Shown here: positions 7,414 to 33,438 of the stretch, piece by piece | How the letters are laid out: every line of letters starts with the position of its first letter | How positions within the stretch are numbered: position 1 is the stretch's first letter | Assembly (NCBI RefSeq): GCF_003334765.1 | Contig: NZ_QOWT01000035.1 | Length of the DNA stretch: 40,549 nucleotides | Reading direction: 5' to 3' (one strand) | Source: Escherichia coli | GTDB lineage: Bacteria > Pseudomonadota > Gammaproteobacteria > Enterobacterales > Enterobacteriaceae | Notes under the pieces: generated by a model | What the model was told of the DNA's origin: nothing | The model's input: the letters and a program-made list of their open reading frames with translations, nothing else | The model's database searches: none | Translations under genes and position numbers: made by a program

Positions 7414-7425
7414 CAAATTCCTCTC

Positions 7426-7449
7426 GCCCGCACTCGCGGGTTTTCATTT
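7426..7449 (+). terminator. rho-independent terminator downstream of dosP
   Basis: Inverted repeat CCCGC / GCGGG with short loop immediately followed by TTTTCATTT, starting 13 bp after the dosP stop. Confidence 0.65.
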
Positions 7450-7610
7450 AACGTGACACTGTCACTTAAATACTGTGATTTCAGCTACGATTCCGGGAGA
7501 TTCCTTCCTTAACTTCCCCTCTTGCACCAAAACTGCACTACGCTGCACAAATGTTGATCAAAAGTTAAAAAATATAACTTTAAGCCAGCATTCTGGCGCT
7601 TATCCCGGCA

Positions 7611-7626
7611 TGGCATGAGATCTGCA
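7611..7626 (+). promoter_or_regulatory. candidate sigma54 (-24/-12) promoter for ddpX operon
   Basis: TGGCATGAGATCTGCA matches the sigma54 consensus TGGCACG-N4-TTGCA with correct GG..GC spacing, about 45 bp upstream of the ddpX ATG; TGCAC repeats lie 65-90 bp further upstream. Confidence 0.55.
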
Positions 7627-7670
7627 TAAGCGGAAAGCGCAGCAATTTTTGTCTTATACAGGAACCGTTT

Positions 7671-8252
7671 ATGTCGGATACCACCGAACTGGTTGATTTA
7701 GCCGTAATCTTCCCTGATCTGGAGATCGAATTGAAATACGCCTGCGCTGATAACATCACAGGTAAAGCTATTTATCAGCAAGCGCGTTGTCTGTTACACA
7801 AGGATGCGATTACCGCGCTGGCGAAAAGTATCAGCATCGCCCAGCTGTCAGGGTTACAACTGGTGATTTACGATGCGTATCGCCCACAACAAGCACAGGC
7901 GATGTTGTGGCAAGCCTGCCCAGACCCGCAATATGTTGTTGATGTGACGGTCGGTTCTAATCACAGCCGTGGCACGGCGATCGACCTGACGCTTCGTGAT
8001 GAGCACGGGAACATCCTCGATATGGGCGCAGGGTTCGATGAAATGCACGAGCGCTCCCATGCCTATCACCCTTCCGTCCCGCCCGCCGCTCAGCGCAATC
8101 GGCTGTTGCTGAATGCGATAATGACTGGTGGCGGTTTTGTCGGTATCTCCAGCGAATGGTGGCACTTCGAATTACCCCAGGCAGCGAGTTACCCTCTGCT
8201 CGCTGATCAATTCTCTTGTTTTATATCCCCTGGCACACAGCACGTCAGTTAA
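7671..8252 (+). CDS. ddpX: D-Ala-D-Ala dipeptidase (VanX homologue), 193 aa
   Basis: 193-aa ORF recognised as DdpX; first gene of a six-gene cluster with an ABC dipeptide transporter downstream. Confidence 0.92.
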   Translation: MSDTTELVDLAVIFPDLEIELKYACADNITGKAIYQQARCLLHKDAITALAKSISIAQLSGLQLVIYDAYRPQQAQAMLWQACPDPQYVVDVTVGSNHSRGTAIDLTLRDEHGNILDMGAGFDEMHERSHAYHPSVPPAAQRNRLLLNAIMTGGGFVGISSEWWHFELPQAASYPLLADQFSCFISPGTQHVS

Positions 8253-8265
8253 TCAGGAAACTGTC

Positions 8266-9816
8266 ATGAAGAGATCGATATCGTTTCGTCCCACATTGCT
8301 CGCGCTCGTCCTTGCCACAAATTTCCCGGTTGCGCACGCCGCCGTACCAAAAGATATGCTGGTGATTGGTAAGGCCGCCGATCCACAAACCCTCGACCCG
8401 GCGGTAACAATAGATAATAACGACTGGACAGTGACCTACCCGTCTTATCAGCGGCTGGTTCAGTACAAAACGGACGGTGATAAAGGCTCAACCGACGTTG
8501 AAGGCGATCTGGCAAGTAGCTGGAAAGCGTCTGACGATCAAAAAGAGTGGACGTTCACCCTGAAAGATAATGCTAAATTTGCCGATGGCACACCTGTCAC
8601 TGCCGAAGCAGTAAAACTTTCTTTTGAGCGGCTACTAAAAATCGGCCAGGGGCCAGCAGAAGCATTTCCCAAAGATTTAAAGATTGATGCTCCCGACGAA
8701 CATACGGTGAAGTTTACCCTTAGCCAACCATTCGCACCGTTCCTCTACACGCTGGCGAATGACGGTGCATCCATTATCAATCCGGCGGTCTTAAAGGAAC
8801 ATGCAGCGGATGATGCTCGCGGCTTCCTCGCGCAAAATACCGCCGGTTCCGGACCATTTATGCTGAAAAGCTGGCAAAAAGGTCAGCAATTAGTTCTGGT
8901 GCCAAATCCGCATTACCCAGGCAATAAACCGAACTTCAAACGGGTATCGGTAAAAATTATTGGTGAAAGTGCCTCCCGTCGCCTGCAGCTCTCCCGTGGC
9001 GACATTGACATTGCCGATGCGCTGCCGGTGGATCAACTCAACGCCCTGAAGCAGGAAAATAAAGTCAATGTGGCAGAGTATCCGTCACTGCGCGTTACCT
9101 ATCTGTATCTGAATAACAGCAAAGCGCCTCTTAATCAGGCGGATCTGCGTCGGGCCATTTCCTGGTCTACCGATTATCAGGGCATGGTTAACGGCATTCT
9201 GAGTGGTAACGGAAAACAGATGCGCGGCCCGATTCCGGAAGGCATGTGGGGCTACGATGCGACGGCAATGCAATACAACCATGACGAAACGAAAGCCAAA
9301 GCCGAATGGGATAAAGTGACGAGCAAACCCACCAGCCTGACGTTTCTCTACTCCGATAACGATCCGAACTGGGAGCCTATTGCTCTGGCGACACAATCCA
9401 GTCTCAACAAGCTGGGCATCATTGTGAAGCTGGAAAAGCTGGCGAACGCCACCATGCGCGACAGAGTGGGTAAAGGTGATTACGACATTGCGATTGGCAA
9501 CTGGAGTCCGGATTTTGCCGACCCGTATATGTTTATGAATTACTGGTTTGAGTCAGACAAAAAAGGTCTGCCGGGTAACCGCTCGTTCTATGAAAACAGT
9601 GAGGTCGATAAGTTACTGCGCAATGCGCTTGCGACCACCGACCAGACGCAGCGTACCCGGGACTACCAGCAGGCACAGAAAATCGTCATTGATGACGCTG
9701 CTTATGTGTACCTGTTCCAGAAAAACTACCAACTGGCGATGAACAAAGAGGTGAAAGGCTTTGTGTTCAATCCCATGCTGGAACAGGTCTTCAATATCAA
9801 TACCATGAGTAAATAA
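8266..9816 (+). CDS. ddpA: periplasmic substrate-binding protein of D,D-dipeptide ABC transporter, 516 aa
   Basis: ORF track gives 8128..9816 overlapping ddpX; start placed at the internal ATG giving MKRSISFRPTLLALVLATNFPVAHA signal peptide and the recalled 516-aa length. Confidence 0.9.
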   Translation: MKRSISFRPTLLALVLATNFPVAHAAVPKDMLVIGKAADPQTLDPAVTIDNNDWTVTYPSYQRLVQYKTDGDKGSTDVEGDLASSWKASDDQKEWTFTLKDNAKFADGTPVTAEAVKLSFERLLKIGQGPAEAFPKDLKIDAPDEHTVKFTLSQPFAPFLYTLANDGASIINPAVLKEHAADDARGFLAQNTAGSGPFMLKSWQKGQQLVLVPNPHYPGNKPNFKRVSVKIIGESASRRLQLSRGDIDIADALPVDQLNALKQENKVNVAEYPSLRVTYLYLNNSKAPLNQADLRRAISWSTDYQGMVNGILSGNGKQMRGPIPEGMWGYDATAMQYNHDETKAKAEWDKVTSKPTSLTFLYSDNDPNWEPIALATQSSLNKLGIIVKLEKLANATMRDRVGKGDYDIAIGNWSPDFADPYMFMNYWFESDKKGLPGNRSFYENSEVDKLLRNALATTDQTQRTRDYQQAQKIVIDDAAYVYLFQKNYQLAMNKEVKGFVFNPMLEQVFNINTMSK

Positions 9817-9817
9817 C

Positions 9818-10840
9818 GTGACCTTCTGGAGTATTTTACGCCAACGCTGCTGGGGGCTGGTGCTCGTGGTGGCGGGCGTCTGCGTGATTACGTTTATTAT
9901 CTCGCATCTGATCCCTGGTGATCCGGCGCGGTTACTGGCGGGTGACCGCGCCAGCGATGCTATCGTGGAAAATATTCGCCAGCAACTGGGACTGGACCAG
10001 CCACTGTATGTACAGTTTTACCGCTACGTCAGCGACCTGTTTCATGGTGACCTGGGAACATCCATTCGTACCGGGCGTCCGGTGCTGGAAGAGTTGCGTA
10101 TATTTTTCCCGGCGACGCTGGAGCTGGCTTTTGGTGCCCTGCTGCTGGCACTCCTGATTGGCATCCCGCTGGGCATACTCTCTGCAGTCTGGCGAAATCG
10201 CTGGCTGGATCATCTGGTGCGAATAATGGCCATTACCGGAATCTCCACACCTGCGTTCTGGCTTGGGCTGGGCGTCATTGTGCTGTTTTATGGTCATCTG
10301 CAAATTCTTCCCGGCGGCGGAAGGCTTGATGACTGGCTGGATCCACCAACGCACGTTACCGGCTTTTATCTGCTCGATGCGCTGCTTGAAGGCAACGGTG
10401 AAGTCTTCTTCAATGCGTTGCAACATCTCATCTTACCGGCATTAACGCTGGCGTTCGTTCACCTGGGAATTGTCGCTCGCCAGATCCGCTCAGCGATGCT
10501 GGAACAATTGAGTGAAGACTACATTCGTACCGCCCGGGCCAGCGGCTTGCCCGGCTGGTATATCGTTTTATGTTATGCGCTACCCAATGCGTTGATCCCA
10601 TCGATTACCGTATTGGGTTTGGCGCTGGGCGATTTGTTGTATGGCGCAGTGCTCACCGAAACCGTTTTTGCCTGGCCCGGAATGGGTGCATGGGTAGTAA
10701 CATCAATACAGGCGCTCGACTTCCCGGCAGTGATGGGCTTTGCCGTCGTGGTTTCATTTGCTTATGTGCTGGTCAACCTGGTGGTGGATTTGCTCTATTT
10801 GTGGATTGATCCGCGTATCGGACGTGGAGGTGGTGAATGA
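9818..10840 (+). CDS. ddpB: ABC transporter permease, 340 aa
   Basis: GTG start 1 nt after the ddpA stop; multi-TM permease recognised as DdpB (DppB-like). Confidence 0.9.
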   Translation: MTFWSILRQRCWGLVLVVAGVCVITFIISHLIPGDPARLLAGDRASDAIVENIRQQLGLDQPLYVQFYRYVSDLFHGDLGTSIRTGRPVLEELRIFFPATLELAFGALLLALLIGIPLGILSAVWRNRWLDHLVRIMAITGISTPAFWLGLGVIVLFYGHLQILPGGGRLDDWLDPPTHVTGFYLLDALLEGNGEVFFNALQHLILPALTLAFVHLGIVARQIRSAMLEQLSEDYIRTARASGLPGWYIVLCYALPNALIPSITVLGLALGDLLYGAVLTETVFAWPGMGAWVVTSIQALDFPAVMGFAVVVSFAYVLVNLVVDLLYLWIDPRIGRGGGE

Positions 10841-11733
10841 TGCTAAGCGAGGAAACGTCCGCCGTACGCCCACAAAAACAAACGCGATTTAACGGTGCAA
10901 AACTGGTATGGATGCTGAAAGGCAGTCCGCTCACCGTGACCAGCGCAGTCATCATTGTATTAATGCTATTGATGATGATTTTTTCACCGTGGCTGGCGAC
11001 GCATGATCCCAACGCCATTGATTTAACCGCCCGCCTTTTGCCGCCTTCTGCGGCGCACTGGTTTGGCACCGATGAAGTGGGACGCGATCTGTTTAGCCGC
11101 GTACTGGTCGGCAGTCAGCAATCAATTCTCGCCGGATTAGTCGTGGTTGCCATTGCGGGTATGATTGGTTCGCTACTCGGATGTCTATCCGGTGTGCTTG
11201 GTGGACGCGCAGACGCCATCATCATGCGCATCATGGACATTATGCTGTCGATTCCTTCGTTGGTACTGACAATGGCACTGGCTGCCGCTCTCGGGCCGAG
11301 TTTGTTTAACGCCATGCTGGCTATTGCTATTGTGCGAATTCCCTTTTATGTGCGCCTGGCGCGGGGGCAAGCATTAGTTGTACGCCAGTATACCTATGTT
11401 CAGGCGGCGAAAACCTTTGGCGCGTCTCGTTGGCATCTGATCAACTGGCATATTTTACGTAACTCCCTACCGCCGCTGATCGTGCAGGCATCGCTGGATA
11501 TCGGTAGCGCGATTTTAATGGCCGCCACGTTGGGATTTATTGGCCTGGGTGCTCAACAACCGAGTGCTGAATGGGGCGCGATGGTAGCAAATGGTCGCAA
11601 CTATGTACTCGATCAGTGGTGGTATTGCGCATTTCCGGGGGCAGCGATTTTGCTTACCGCCGTCGGGTTTAATCTCTTTGGTGATGGTATTCGCGATCTG
11701 CTTGACCCGAAAGCAGGAGGAAAGCAGTCATGA
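10837..11733 (+). CDS. ddpC: ABC transporter permease, 298 aa
   Basis: ATGA start/stop overlap with ddpB; DppC-like permease. Confidence 0.9.
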   Translation: MMLSEETSAVRPQKQTRFNGAKLVWMLKGSPLTVTSAVIIVLMLLMMIFSPWLATHDPNAIDLTARLLPPSAAHWFGTDEVGRDLFSRVLVGSQQSILAGLVVVAIAGMIGSLLGCLSGVLGGRADAIIMRIMDIMLSIPSLVLTMALAAALGPSLFNAMLAIAIVRIPFYVRLARGQALVVRQYTYVQAAKTFGASRWHLINWHILRNSLPPLIVQASLDIGSAILMAATLGFIGLGAQQPSAEWGAMVANGRNYVLDQWWYCAFPGAAILLTAVGFNLFGDGIRDLLDPKAGGKQS

Positions 11734-12716
11734 CCCAACCCGTTCTGGACATTCAACAACTGCATTTGAGTTTCCCCGGTTTTAACGGTGATGTTCACGC
11801 GCTCAACAATGTGTCCTTGCAGATTAACCGCGGTGAAATTGTCGGTCTGGTGGGAGAATCCGGCTCAGGTAAATCAGTCACCGCAATGCTGATTATGCGT
11901 CTGCTACCGACGGGCAGTTATTGCGTACATCGGGGGCAGATTTCCCTGCTGGGAGAAGATGTTCTTAACGCGCGGGAAAAACAGCTTCGTCAGTGGCGCG
12001 GCGCACGAGTGGCGATGATCTTTCAGGAACCGATGACCGCCCTCAATCCGACACGTCGAATAGGTCTTCAGATGATGGACGTGATCCGCCATCATCAACC
12101 AATAAGTCGTCGGGAAGCCAGAGCTAAAGCGATTGACCTGCTGGAAGAGATGCAAATCCCGGATGCCGTGGAAGTTATGTCGCGCTATCCGTTTGAGCTT
12201 TCAGGTGGTATGCGCCAGCGGGTAATGATTGCGCTGGCATTCTCCTGCGAGCCGCAATTGATTATTGCCGACGAACCGACTACGGCGCTGGACGTCACGG
12301 TGCAGTTGCAGGTACTGCGTTTGCTTAAACATAAAGCCCGCGCCAGTGGAACTGCGGTTCTGTTCATCAGCCATGATATGGCCGTGGTGTCGCAACTGTG
12401 CGATAGCGTTTACGTGATGTATGCCGGAAGCGTAATTGAAAGCGGCGTGACGGCAGACGTTATCCATCATCCCCGGCATCCGTATACCATTGGTTTGCTG
12501 CAATGCGCACCAGAACATGGAGTACCACGCCAGCTATTACCCGCCATTCCAGGGACGGTACCAAACCTCACCCATTTGCCTGACGGCTGCGCTTTTCGCG
12601 ATCGTTGCTATGCGGCAGGTGCACAGTGTGAAAACGTCCCGGCGCTGACAGCGTGTGGTGACAACAACCAGCGCTGTGCCTGTTGGTATCCGCAGCAGGA
12701 GGTTATAAGTGTCTGA
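11730..12716 (+). CDS. ddpD: ABC transporter ATP-binding protein, 328 aa
   Basis: Walker A GESGSGKS and signature LSGGMRQR visible; ATGA overlap with ddpC. Confidence 0.92.
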   Translation: MTQPVLDIQQLHLSFPGFNGDVHALNNVSLQINRGEIVGLVGESGSGKSVTAMLIMRLLPTGSYCVHRGQISLLGEDVLNAREKQLRQWRGARVAMIFQEPMTALNPTRRIGLQMMDVIRHHQPISRREARAKAIDLLEEMQIPDAVEVMSRYPFELSGGMRQRVMIALAFSCEPQLIIADEPTTALDVTVQLQVLRLLKHKARASGTAVLFISHDMAVVSQLCDSVYVMYAGSVIESGVTADVIHHPRHPYTIGLLQCAPEHGVPRQLLPAIPGTVPNLTHLPDGCAFRDRCYAAGAQCENVPALTACGDNNQRCACWYPQQEVISV

Positions 12717-13635
12717 CACGTTATTAACGTTACGCGACGTCCATATCAATTTCCCGGCCCGTAAAAACTGGCTTGGTAAAACTACGGAACATGTTCATGC
12801 CATTAATGGTATTGATTTACAGATCCGCCGTGGTGAAACCTTAGGGATCGTCGGCGAGTCAGGCTGCGGCAAAAGCACCCTCGCACAGCTTTTAATGGGT
12901 ATGCTGCAACCGAGCCACGGGCAGTACATCCGTTCTGGCTCACAACGCATTATGCAGATGGTGTTTCAGGACCCGCTCTCTTCGCTTAATCCGCGCTTAC
13001 CGGTGTGGCGCATCATCACAGAACCGCTCTGGATAGCTAAGCGTAGTAGTGAACAACAGCGGCGAGCGTTGGCAGAGGAGTTGGCTGTGCAGGTGGGTAT
13101 TCGTCCGGAGTATCTCGACCGCCTGCCTCATGCGTTCTCCGGCGGGCAGCGGCAACGTATCGCCATTGCCAGAGCACTCTCTTCGCAGCCTGACGTGATT
13201 GTGCTTGATGAGCCAACCTCTGCGCTGGATATCTCCGTTCAGGCGCAGATCCTCAATTTACTGGTAACGCTACAGGAAAATCACGGGCTGACCTATGTGC
13301 TGATTTCACACAATGTCTCGGTGATACGTCATATGAGCGATCGGGTGGCGGTGATGTATCTCGGGCAGATTGTAGAACTGGGCGACGCGCAGCAGGTGCT
13401 GACGGCACCTGCACATCCATACACCCGATTATTGCTGGATTCCCTCCCCGCCATTGATAAACCGCTGGAGGAAGAATGGGCATTACGTAAAACGGATCTG
13501 CCGGGAAACCGCACGTTGCCGCAAGGCTGTTTTTTCTACGAACGTTGCCCGCTGGCAACCCACGGATGTGAAGTCCGGCAATCATTAGCAATAAGGGAGG
13601 ACGGACGTGAGCTCCGGTGCTGGCGGGCGCTGTAG
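12709..13635 (+). CDS. ddpF: ABC transporter ATP-binding protein, 308 aa
   Basis: GTG start overlapping the ddpD end by 8 nt; Walker A GESGCGKS and signature FSGGQRQR visible. Confidence 0.9.
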   Translation: MSDTLLTLRDVHINFPARKNWLGKTTEHVHAINGIDLQIRRGETLGIVGESGCGKSTLAQLLMGMLQPSHGQYIRSGSQRIMQMVFQDPLSSLNPRLPVWRIITEPLWIAKRSSEQQRRALAEELAVQVGIRPEYLDRLPHAFSGGQRQRIAIARALSSQPDVIVLDEPTSALDISVQAQILNLLVTLQENHGLTYVLISHNVSVIRHMSDRVAVMYLGQIVELGDAQQVLTAPAHPYTRLLLDSLPAIDKPLEEEWALRKTDLPGNRTLPQGCFFYERCPLATHGCEVRQSLAIREDGRELRCWRAL

Positions 13636-13690
13636 AGATGCTAACAACGCATCAGGCATTCACGCGCCTGACGCGTCATCCGGCAATGCT

Positions 13691-14122
13691 TTACGATTTC
13701 AACTGGTAATCCAGCGTAATTTCCGCTTTCAGTACCTGAGAGACCGGGCATCCTGCTTTTGCTTTCTGGATTATGCCGTCAAAGGTAGAGGCATCAATAC
13801 CCGGCACCGCAACTTCACTCTTCAGTGCGATTTTCGTAATCGCAAAACCGGCATCCACTTTATCCAGCGACACATCGGCGGTGGTATCAATCGATGTTGG
13901 CGTGAATCCCGCTTCCCCCAGCATTAATGAAAGCGCCATTGAGAAACATGCGGCATGCGCTGCGCCAATCAGTTCTTCAGGGTTGGTTCCTTTTTCGCCT
14001 TCAAAACGCGTGTTAAATCCATACGGCTGTTGGTTCAGCACGCCACTCTCGGTGGATACTGTTCCCTTCCCGCGTTTGATATCGCCTTCCCAGTGTGCCT
14101 GACCTTTCTTATGGATTGTCAT
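13691..14122 (-). CDS. osmC: osmotically inducible peroxiredoxin OsmC, 143 aa
   Basis: 143-aa ORF recognised as OsmC (OsmC/Ohr family); convergent with ddpF. Confidence 0.95.
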   Translation of the reverse strand: MTIHKKGQAHWEGDIKRGKGTVSTESGVLNQQPYGFNTRFEGEKGTNPEELIGAAHAACFSMALSLMLGEAGFTPTSIDTTADVSLDKVDAGFAITKIALKSEVAVPGIDASTFDGIIQKAKAGCPVSQVLKAEITLDYQLKS

Positions 14123-31897: not shown

Positions 31898-33438
31898 AAA
31901 TCCGTTCACAAGTCGGCATGGTGCTTAACCTCGACAAATGTATCGGCTGCCATACCTGTTCGGTGACCTGTAAAAACGTCTGGACCGGGCGCGAAGGCAT
32001 GGAGTACGCATGGTTTAACAACGTCGAAACCAAACCGGGCATTGGTTATCCGAAAAACTGGGAAGATCAGGAAGAGTGGCAAGGCGGCTGGGTGCGTGAT
32101 GTGAATGGCAAGATACGCCCGCGTCTGGGCAACAAGATGGGCGTAATAACCAAAATCTTCGCCAACCCGGTGGTGCCGCAGATTGATGATTACTACGAAC
32201 CTTTCACCTTCGACTACGAACATTTGCATAGCGCACCGGAAGGCAAACATATTCCTACTGCTCGCCCGCGTTCACTGATTGACGGCAAACGGATGGACAA
32301 AGTGATCTGGGGGCCAAACTGGGAAGAACTGCTGGGCGGTGAGTTCGAAAAACGTGCCCGCGACCGCAACTTCGAGGCCATGCAAAAGGAGATGTACGGG
32401 CAGTTTGAAAACACCTTCATGATGTACCTGCCGCGCCTGTGCGAACACTGCCTCAATCCCAGCTGCGTGGCGACCTGCCCAAGCGGCGCTATCTACAAAC
32501 GCGAAGAAGACGGCATTGTGCTGATTGATCAGGATAAATGCCGTGGCTGGCGTTTGTGCATAAGCGGTTGTCCGTACAAAAAAATCTACTTCAACTGGAA
32601 AAGCGGCAAGTCAGAAAAATGCATCTTCTGTTACCCACGAATTGAGTCCGGTCAACCGACCGTGTGCTCAGAAACCTGCGTGGGTCGCATCCGGTATCTG
32701 GGCGTGCTGCTTTACGACGCCGACCGCATCGAGGAAGCGGCGAGCACCGAGCGCGAAGTTGACCTCTATGAACGCCAGTGCGAAGTGTTCCTCGATCCAC
32801 ACGATCCCTCAGTGATCGAGGAAGCCCTGAAACAAGGTATTCCACAAAATGTGATTGACGCTGCCCAGCGTTCGCCAGTCTACAAAATGGCGATGGACTG
32901 GAAACTGGCACTACCGTTGCACCCTGAATACCGCACCCTGCCGATGGTCTGGTACGTTCCTCCGCTGTCACCGATTCAGTCCTACGCAGATGCGGGCGGT
33001 TTGCCGAAAAGCGAAGGCGTGCTGCCCGCCATCGAAAGCCTGCGTATTCCGGTGCAATATCTCGCCAATATGTTGAGTGCCGGCGATACCGGTCCGGTAC
33101 TGCGGGCGCTGAAACGGATGATGGCGATGCGCCACTATATGCGTTCACAAACCGTGGAAGGCGTTACTGATACTCGTGCCATCGACGAAGTAGGCCTGAG
33201 CGTCGCCCAGGTCGAAGAGATGTATCGCTATCTCGCCATTGCCAACTATGAAGATCGTTTTGTTATCCCGACCAGCCATCGGGAAATGGCGGGCGATGCC
33301 TTCGCAGAACGCAACGGCTGCGGTTTTACCTTTGGCGACGGTTGCCACGGTTCGGACAGTAAATTCAACCTGTTCAACAGTAGCCGTATCGATGCCATCA
33401 ACATCACCGAAGTGCGCGACAAAGCGGAGGGCGAATAA
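31894..33438 (+). CDS. narY: nitrate reductase Z beta subunit (Fe-S), 514 aa
   Basis: Four Cys clusters (e.g. CIGCHTCSVTC, CEHCLNPSCVATCP); ATGA overlap with narZ. Confidence 0.95.
   Translation: MKIRSQVGMVLNLDKCIGCHTCSVTCKNVWTGREGMEYAWFNNVETKPGIGYPKNWEDQEEWQGGWVRDVNGKIRPRLGNKMGVITKIFANPVVPQIDDYYEPFTFDYEHLHSAPEGKHIPTARPRSLIDGKRMDKVIWGPNWEELLGGEFEKRARDRNFEAMQKEMYGQFENTFMMYLPRLCEHCLNPSCVATCPSGAIYKREEDGIVLIDQDKCRGWRLCISGCPYKKIYFNWKSGKSEKCIFCYPRIESGQPTVCSETCVGRIRYLGVLLYDADRIEEAASTEREVDLYERQCEVFLDPHDPSVIEEALKQGIPQNVIDAAQRSPVYKMAMDWKLALPLHPEYRTLPMVWYVPPLSPIQSYADAGGLPKSEGVLPAIESLRIPVQYLANMLSAGDTGPVLRALKRMMAMRHYMRSQTVEGVTDTRAIDEVGLSVAQVEEMYRYLAIANYEDRFVIPTSHREMAGDAFAERNGCGFTFGDGCHGSDSKFNLFNSSRIDAINITEVRDKAEGE

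Follow-up and report, generated by a model that had tools for sequence, protein, structure and literature searches.

Tight gene junctions in the Escherichia coli ddp operon: a standard importer locus in which only ddpB looks dependent on translational coupling

The stretch of Escherichia coli DNA analysed here (40,549 nt of contig NZ_QOWT01000035.1, hereafter the window) carries the standard E. coli K-12 ddpXABCDF operon. Its four transporter-internal junctions are tight, probably because the genes share an mRNA, specify the parts of a single complex and are joined by termination-reinitiation. Judging from the start regions, only ddpB looks dependent on such coupling. The overlaps are already known: no bacterial genome has been studied more, and its reference annotation contains them. 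Being annotated K-12 junctions and the commonest way in which bacteria join genes for the subunits of a complex, they are thus ordinary.

Positions 7671-13635 of the window are 100% identical to K-12 ddpXABCDF (b1488-b1483), within an alignment to MG1655 that spans 6.5 kb, and the flanks match K-12 synteny, with dosP upstream and osmC downstream. The coding sequence coordinates (Table 1) agree with both the PGAP annotation of MG1655 and the curated NC_000913.3, and are equal in six further E. coli genomes (96.6-99.7% identity). The operon encodes one D-Ala-D-Ala dipeptidase, followed by an ABC importer of the Dpp/Opp/Nik type. As expected of a PepT importer, a single operon holds the gene for one family-5 binding protein together with a pair each of permease and ATPase genes. 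The transporter subunits match Dpp, Opp, Nik and Gsi subunits in NCBIfam (E 1e-50 to 1e-101), and a PDB search returned relatives. DdpC is recognised over residues 1-298 of 298 by the D,D-dipeptide permease equivalog NF007376, with 624.1 bits (cut-off 434). The gene identities and junction anatomy given in a preliminary description of this DNA are correct: the 1-nt distance between ddpA and ddpB (TAA-C-GTG), the ATGA overlaps of ddpB/ddpC and ddpC/ddpD and the 8-nt ddpD/ddpF overlap with its GTG start are all exact to the base and the same in both RefSeq annotations.

Table 1. Coordinates of operon features in the window.
Feature	Position	Strand	Basis or detail
sigma-54 (RpoN) type promoter TGGCATGAGATCTGCA	7611..7626	+	pattern match; 45 nt upstream of ddpX ATG
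ddpX, D-alanyl-D-alanine dipeptidase (VanX homologue)	7671..8252	+	annotation, NF007557, alignment to VanX 1R44
ddpA, periplasmic family-5 substrate-binding protein	8266..9816	+	annotation, profile match
ddpA/ddpB junction TAA-c-GTG, +1 nt	9814..9820	+	stop 9814-9816, C 9817, GTG 9818-9820
ddpB, permease, GTG start	9818..10840	+	annotation, profile match, start analysis
GGAGG Shine-Dalgarno site for ddpC	10826..10830	+	in last ddpB codons; -10.6 kcal/mol, top 0.5% of positions
ddpB/ddpC overlap ATGA, -4	10837..10842, including second ATG (ATGATG)	+	TGA 10838-10840, ATG 10837-10839
ddpC, permease	10837..11733	+	NF007376 equivalog
AGGAGG Shine-Dalgarno site for ddpD	11715..11720	+	inside ddpC; -10.3 kcal/mol
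ddpC/ddpD overlap ATGA, -4	11730..11733	+	TGA 11731-11733, ATG 11730-11732
ddpD, ATP-binding subunit	11730..12716	+	annotation, profile match
AGGAGG Shine-Dalgarno site for ddpF	12697..12702	+	inside ddpD; -11.0 kcal/mol, top 0.2% of positions
ddpD/ddpF overlap GTGTCTGA, -8	12709..12716	+	TGA 12714-12716, GTG 12709-12711
ddpF, ATP-binding subunit, GTG start	12709..13635	+	annotation, profile match, start analysis

Among unidirectional E. coli gene pairs, 707 of 2,987 (24%) lie at -8 to +6 nt, and the commonest intergenic distances are -4, -1 and -8 (PMC10666635). In the same window, the narZYWV junctions are -4, -1 and -4 nt, and fdnH/fdnI overlap by 8 nt. Four tight junctions in series would have a probability of ~0.003 at the 24% rate if independent; the ddp junctions are not independent, since tight junctions are the rule in this ABC importer family. 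Furthermore, subunits of heteromeric complexes are 4.5-fold enriched among tight pairs (PMC10666635). An unbroken tight chain that includes the binding protein-permease junction is also seen in K-12 nikABCDE (-1, -4, -1, -4), sapABCDF (-4, -14, -1, +1) and yejABEF (0, -1, +1), although these systems handle other substrates, differ in register and are not preceded by a hydrolase gene. K-12 dppABCDF and oppABCDF share the subunit architecture of ddp, and their D/F junctions overlap too, by 4 nt. However, a long spacer (+307 and +85 nt, respectively) follows their binding-protein gene, and B/C and C/D are +9 to +14 nt apart, which makes initiation there independent. The ddp junction chain is typical of its transporter family.

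The ddp distances of +1, -4, -4 and -8 all fall within the range of about -8 to +6 nt of coupled pairs, and reinitiation efficiency drops steeply with distance (PMC10666635). Tight translational coupling, as put forward in the preliminary description, can thus reasonably be inferred from the junction distances. When native E. coli pairs with -4 overlaps were tested, four of five were coupled, with a Shine-Dalgarno site contributing in four of five (PMC6728339). The termination-reinitiation pairs that Huber et al. examined (2019, with a 2023 follow-up; hyfHI, astDB, ydbH/ynbE, plus menDH) resemble ddp in having -4 overlaps whose Shine-Dalgarno site falls within the upstream gene. The ddp distances lie in the experimentally permissive range; unlike those pairs, ddp also has a -8 overlap and a +1 junction devoid of a Shine-Dalgarno site. 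A literature search for experiments on ddp translation found none.

ddpC, ddpD and ddpF have the operon's strongest anti-Shine-Dalgarno matches (-10.3 to -11.0 kcal/mol, ranking in the top 0.2-0.7% of its positions), and the ddpC site is kept in orthologues. All three genes have, within the upstream open reading frame, a Shine-Dalgarno site of the kind that assists reinitiation, whereas ddpB does not: no such site is present upstream of its start, and its anti-Shine-Dalgarno energy of -2.2 kcal/mol is equalled or beaten by 61% of operon positions. The ddpA start lies 13 nt past the stop of ddpX and is preceded by an AGGA Shine-Dalgarno site. Sequestration of the initiation regions by structure, as in the coupling model of Huber et al., was found to be unsupported (mean P(unpaired) 0.34-0.59, compared to 0.37-0.40 for the context). 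With such strong sites and no predicted sequestration, ddpC, ddpD and ddpF could therefore also be initiated de novo. For ddpB, with a GTG start 1 nt after a stop and no Shine-Dalgarno site, dependence on reinitiation is the most plausible reading. In the proposed mechanism, a ribosome ending the upstream gene would re-initiate at the adjacent or overlapping start codon, assisted at ddpC, ddpD and ddpF by the embedded Shine-Dalgarno sites. These three genes would probably see some independent initiation too, while ddpB would probably depend almost wholly on reinitiation, so that less of the membrane subunits would be made than of the abundant binding protein.

The same strong, predicted unstructured initiation regions could be taken to mean that the ddpC, ddpD and ddpF overlaps reflect genome compaction only, with each gene initiating independently at its own site and depending little or not at all on upstream translation. 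The bioBF pair, alone among the five E. coli overlap pairs tested, showed no coupling and provides a precedent in which a -4 overlap goes with de novo initiation (PMC6728339), and dpp and opp function well with spacers at B/C and C/D. We nevertheless consider this unlikely: the four other tested pairs were coupled although a Shine-Dalgarno site was present (PMC6728339), ddpB wholly lacks such a site, and tightness is retained in orthologues despite changes in register. Among 36 orthologous loci, with starts picked by Shine-Dalgarno strength and start-codon type, blind to the upstream stop, the junction is tight in 35 of 35 cases for B/C, 35 of 36 for C/D and 34 of 35 for D/F (97-100%). The register varies (-8, -4, -1, +1, +2) over gamma-, beta- and alpha-proteobacteria. 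That tightness is kept while the register shifts suggests proximity itself is maintained.

The ddpA/ddpB junction behaves differently. Apart from the window copy, 32 orthologous loci were scored, and a second Escherichia record is the sole one in which the two genes abut in this way. The abutment is specific to Escherichia, a small new point. Outside this genus, ddpA and ddpB are separated by a spacer of 22-191 nt (48 nt in Citrobacter), in most cases with a ribosome-binding site, an ATG and a hairpin of GC-rich, covarying sequence. Tentatively, and with rather less confidence than we place in coupling itself, the ancestral spacer may have been deleted in Escherichia, which would amount to a natural switch between two means of balancing binding protein against membrane subunits. 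An mRNA hairpin with independent initiation would be the ancestral arrangement, and obligatory, inefficient termination-reinitiation the derived one. The change may also cause the strong mRNA polarity from ddpX to ddpF described below.

The ddpX gene shows RpoS-dependent stationary-phase expression and serves D-Ala-D-Ala recycling. The window contains two matches to the sigma-54 pattern, where chance would give 0.26. Control of ddpX by NtrC/RpoN is known, and its promoter, which depends on NtrC/RpoN, drives the induction of ddpX as well as of ddpF (PMC8743547). Upon nitrogen depletion, ddpX mRNA rises 104-fold and that of ddpF only 2.2-fold (PMC8743547). Expression thus differs greatly along the operon, and effects at the mRNA level may dominate. 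Scanning the ddp junctions for a terminator or a sigma-70 promoter revealed neither, and an Rfam search of the window placed no known RNA element in the operon, the sole match being the fdnG SECIS.

This weak distal induction (PMC8743547) would also suit a view of the abutting ddpB GTG without a Shine-Dalgarno site, and of the GTG rather than ATG start of ddpF, as outcomes of decay or of relaxed selection, rather than of tuned coupling, in an accessory operon that can be dispensed with. The whole operon is deleted, leaving a scar, in ~21% of complete E. coli genomes, and both changes weaken initiation signals compared to all other orthologues. In other Enterobacterales, the -8 D/F overlap reads ATGnCTGA (20 loci). 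The ddpF start is GTG in all seven E. coli genomes inspected, on which this statement rests, as linked SNPs confound the identity bands of an 80-mer search for the ATG allele over E. coli genomes. Decay is nonetheless quite improbable, as all five transporter open reading frames are intact in those seven genomes, an 80-mer over the ddpA/ddpB junction is identical in 4,048 of the 4,234 E. coli genomes holding it, and nik, sap and yej likewise abut the binding-protein gene to a permease gene.

The GTG starts of ddpB and ddpF, together with the adjacent ATG pair of ddpC, might instead suggest mis-annotation, with true starts off the overlaps, the circumstance the preliminary description named as fatal to its claim. 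The ddpBCDF starts cannot move, because each is forced by the sequence through in-frame stops close upstream and conserved N-termini. The closest upstream in-frame stops lie 3 (ddpB), 0 (ddpC), 8 (ddpD) and 0 (ddpF) codons before the start, leaving no upstream alternatives; for ddpF, the in-frame TAA at 12706-12708 blocks any earlier start. Downstream, the next in-frame starts are codon 15 of DdpB, within transmembrane helix 1, codon 2 or 26 of DdpC, codon 13 of DdpD and codon 63 of DdpF, beyond the Walker A motif, so that their use would remove transmembrane helix 1, the first beta-strand or Walker A. The start codons are positionally orthologous to the ATG of other genera, and family profiles align from residues 1-12. 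The sole freedom is the second in-frame ddpC ATG at 10840-10842, which would give an overlap of 1 nt in place of 4 and is tight either way. Mis-annotated starts are hence extremely improbable, and were rejected.

The preliminary description further took the overlaps to imply that the unit imports and cleaves D-Ala-D-Ala. This does not follow, as the substrate assignment rests on DdpX homology, gene linkage and prior literature. Its label of a VanX-like dipeptidase is apt: alignment to VanX (PDB 1R44) shows the zinc and catalytic motifs conserved, and the fold-defining SxHSRGxAID and EWWH are shared with VanX of vancomycin-resistant enterococci. DdpX scores 334.7 bits against its own equivalog NF007557 (cut-off 176) and 93.9 bits against the VanX equivalog NF033115, below the cut-off of 320. 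Given this score and the conserved motifs, 'VanX-like' is right and 'VanX' wrong, DdpX being a homologue in another genomic and regulatory context rather than VanX proper. ddpX is linked to the transporter genes in 29 of 34 assessable orthologous loci. The DdpABCDF transport products are labelled 'putative' in NC_000913.3, and a PDB search for a DdpA structure or ligand returned none. D-Ala-D-Ala is thus the putative DdpABCDF substrate, on the basis of DdpX homology, the conserved linkage and prior literature.

Taken as a whole, ddp illustrates a quantified rule, that genes for the subunits of a complex are joined by overlaps of -4, -1 or -8 nt, and offers a clean textbook example in which all start codons are forced by the sequence. 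Because relatives keep the hairpin-bearing spacer, ddpA/ddpB could serve as a natural test case in which two means of fixing the proportion of binding protein and permease are compared.

The window from 7400 to 13900 matches E. coli K-12 MG1655, and many more strains, at 100% identity, and gene coordinates were converted to window positions from the PGAP annotation of MG1655 and the curated NC_000913.3 record. The annotation places dosP upstream of the ddp operon and osmC, bdm and sra downstream. In NCBIfam, DdpX passes the equivalog cut-off for D-Ala-D-Ala dipeptidase (334.7 bits versus 176) and DdpC, over its full length, the one for D,D-dipeptide permease (624 versus 434); DdpA, DdpB, DdpD and DdpF match Dpp/Opp/Nik/Gsi subunit families. 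The dipeptidase had been termed 'VanX-like', which is apt because DdpX, at 93.9 bits, is well short of the 320 required by the VanX equivalog, yet the SxHSRGxAID and EWWH motifs of VanX (PDB 1R44) are intact in the aligned protein.

Features of the ddp region and the wider window (window positions)
Feature	Position	Strand	Details
ddpX	7671-8252		PGAP MG1655 and NC_000913.3
ddpA	8266-9816		PGAP MG1655 and NC_000913.3
ddpB	9818-10840		PGAP MG1655 and NC_000913.3
ddpC	10837-11733		PGAP MG1655 and NC_000913.3
ddpD	11730-12716		PGAP MG1655 and NC_000913.3
ddpF	12709-13635		PGAP MG1655 and NC_000913.3
ddpA/ddpB junction	9814-9820		TAA-c-GTG
ddpB/ddpC overlap	10837-10840		ATGA, then second ATG
ddpC/ddpD overlap	11730-11733		ATGA
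ddpD/ddpF overlap	12709-12716		GTGTCTGA
Terminator-like hairpin and T-run	7423-7441	+	just past dosP stop; separates dosCP from ddp
Sigma-54 type promoter	7611-7626	+	TGGCATGAGATCTGCA; 45 nt upstream of ddpX, pattern match
REP-like imperfect palindrome	13645-13695		GCATCAGGCATTCACGCGCCTGACGCGTCATCCGGCA; between convergent ddpF and osmC stops
SECIS_3	22706-22764	-	selenocysteine insertion element of fdnG; Rfam 84 bits, gathering score 63

The preliminary description had reported a chain of start/stop overlaps through ddpABCDF, from which it drew tight translational coupling and a unit that imports and cleaves D-Ala-D-Ala. The observation is confirmed, with all four junctions reading exactly so in the window sequence, and the interpretation is partly supported. 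True starts away from the overlaps are ruled out. The nearest upstream in-frame stops lie 3, 0, 8 and 0 codons before ddpB, ddpC, ddpD and ddpF, and no earlier in-frame start exists for any of them. Moving downstream removes essential structure, the next in-frame start being codon 15 in DdpB (within the first membrane helix), codon 13 in DdpD (within the first strand) and codon 63 in DdpF (past the Walker A motif). Furthermore, the homologous starts in other genera are ATG codons at the same positions (e.g. MTF for DdpB, MSD/MTD for DdpF). The sole freedom is the choice between the two ddpC ATGs, giving -4 or -1 nt, tight either way.

Compared with the whole E. coli genome, in which 707 of 2,987 unidirectional pairs (24%) fall at -8 to +6 nt and the commonest distances are -4, -1 and -8 (PMC10666635), the junction chain is beyond chance. 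Against the right reference class, the transporter family, it is not. Among the K-12 paralogues, nik (-1, -4, -1, -4), sap (-4, -14, -1, +1) and yej (0, -1, +1) are similarly compact, whereas dpp and opp have spacers everywhere but D/F, at -4. The chain is already known and family-typical. We sampled 80 loci encoding DdpC relatives, choosing starts by Shine-Dalgarno strength and codon type, blind to the upstream stop. Tight junctions were found at B/C in 35/35, C/D in 35/36 and D/F in 34/35 of the 36 orthologous loci, and at 73%, 55% and 75%, respectively, in 42 less closely related operons in the family. This tightness extends from Enterobacterales as far as Pseudomonas, Rhodoferax, Advenella and rhizobia, yet the register shifts among -8, -4, -1, +1 and +2 across orthologues, which argues that proximity itself is maintained rather than frozen by accident.

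Elsewhere in the window, minus-strand narZYWV (~26.7-32.8 kb) is also tight (narZ/Y -4, narY/W -1, narW/V -4), fdnH/fdnI (minus strand, ~17.7-18.6 kb) overlap at -8, and pptA and yddH are annotated in NC_000913.3 with a convergent 4-nt overlap.

The function assigned to the unit does not follow from the overlaps, of which the substrate inference is independent. D-Ala-D-Ala cleavage by DdpX is well supported by the equivalog match, the VanX motifs and enzymology reportedly carried out by Lessard and Walsh. Import by DdpABCDF is putative and suggested by linkage, ddpX adjoining the transporter genes in 29 of the 34 orthologous loci that could be assessed; the subunits are annotated 'putative' in NC_000913.3, and the PDB holds no DdpA structure or ligand.

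Translational coupling appears plausible. Anti-Shine-Dalgarno pairing before ddpC, ddpD and ddpF is -10.6, -10.3 and -11.0 kcal/mol (top 0.2-0.7% of operon positions); before ddpB it is -2.2 kcal/mol, with 61% of positions equally good. The initiation regions have unremarkable predicted accessibility (0.34-0.59), so computation gives no sign of structure blocking independent initiation there. Published experiments on native E. coli gene pairs make coupling more plausible: of five -4 pairs four were coupled, the Shine-Dalgarno site usually contributed, and reinitiation loss was 5-70% with a 2-nt spacer and near-total with 38 nt (PMC6728339; PMC10666635). We found no ddp-specific translation experiments in the literature. 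ddpB would be translated essentially by ribosomes terminating at the ddpA stop alone, and at ddpC, ddpD and ddpF Shine-Dalgarno-assisted reinitiation would be supplemented by a degree of de novo initiation.

ddpX is a known NtrC/RpoN target, and upon nitrogen depletion mRNA rises 104-fold for ddpX versus 2.2-fold for ddpF by RT-qPCR (PMC8743547), which shows strong polarity along the operon. Weak ddpB translation is compatible with this polarity and may be a cause of it. The window also has candidate NtrC half-sites (TGCACC...TGCAC) around 7524-7550 and, at 32906-32921, a second sigma-54 pattern match.

The operon (window 7490-13646) is missing from about 21% of complete E. coli genomes: of 5,411 with a match, just 4,272 cover 80% or more of the query. 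In strain A13 (locus L088), dosP adjoins osmC across a 69-nt scar (1591-1659), in which a stretch of 25 nt is 92% identical to ddpF 13181-13205. This remnant shows a clean ~6.2-kb deletion in A13 rather than insertion in other strains. The REP-like palindrome is kept in genomes with ddp deleted.

The GTG start of ddpF (12709) was present in 7/7 E. coli genomes inspected. It is derived, because D/F reads ATGnCTGA in 20 loci of other Enterobacterales that overlap at -8 (L002-L021 and L025), the divergent Escherichia record L002 among them. Serratia and Rouxiella have TGATG (-1).

Among 32 orthologous loci scored, L002 alone has the TAA-c-GTG of the window at ddpA/ddpB; every other locus has a spacer of 22-191 nt. 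In most non-Escherichia orthologues (L003-L035) the spacer contains a GC-rich stem-loop with a stem of 8-12 bp and a dG of roughly -20 to -50 kcal/mol; a Shine-Dalgarno site and then ATG come after it. The hairpin sequence differs by genus, with stems GCGGAGCC/GGCTCCGC in Citrobacter, CAGGGCC/GGCCCTG in Pantoea and GCCGGGCC/GGCCCGGC in Pluralibacter; in Enterobacter and Lelliottia the spacer is 23 nt and the predicted stem merely weak. An 80-mer across the abutment is identical in 4,048 of the 4,234 E. coli genomes carrying it. As the spacer is present in all non-Escherichia loci scored, the abutment appears to be a lineage-specific deletion, fixed in E. coli. This Escherichia-specific loss of the hairpin spacer would be a small new comparative point, and a testable one.
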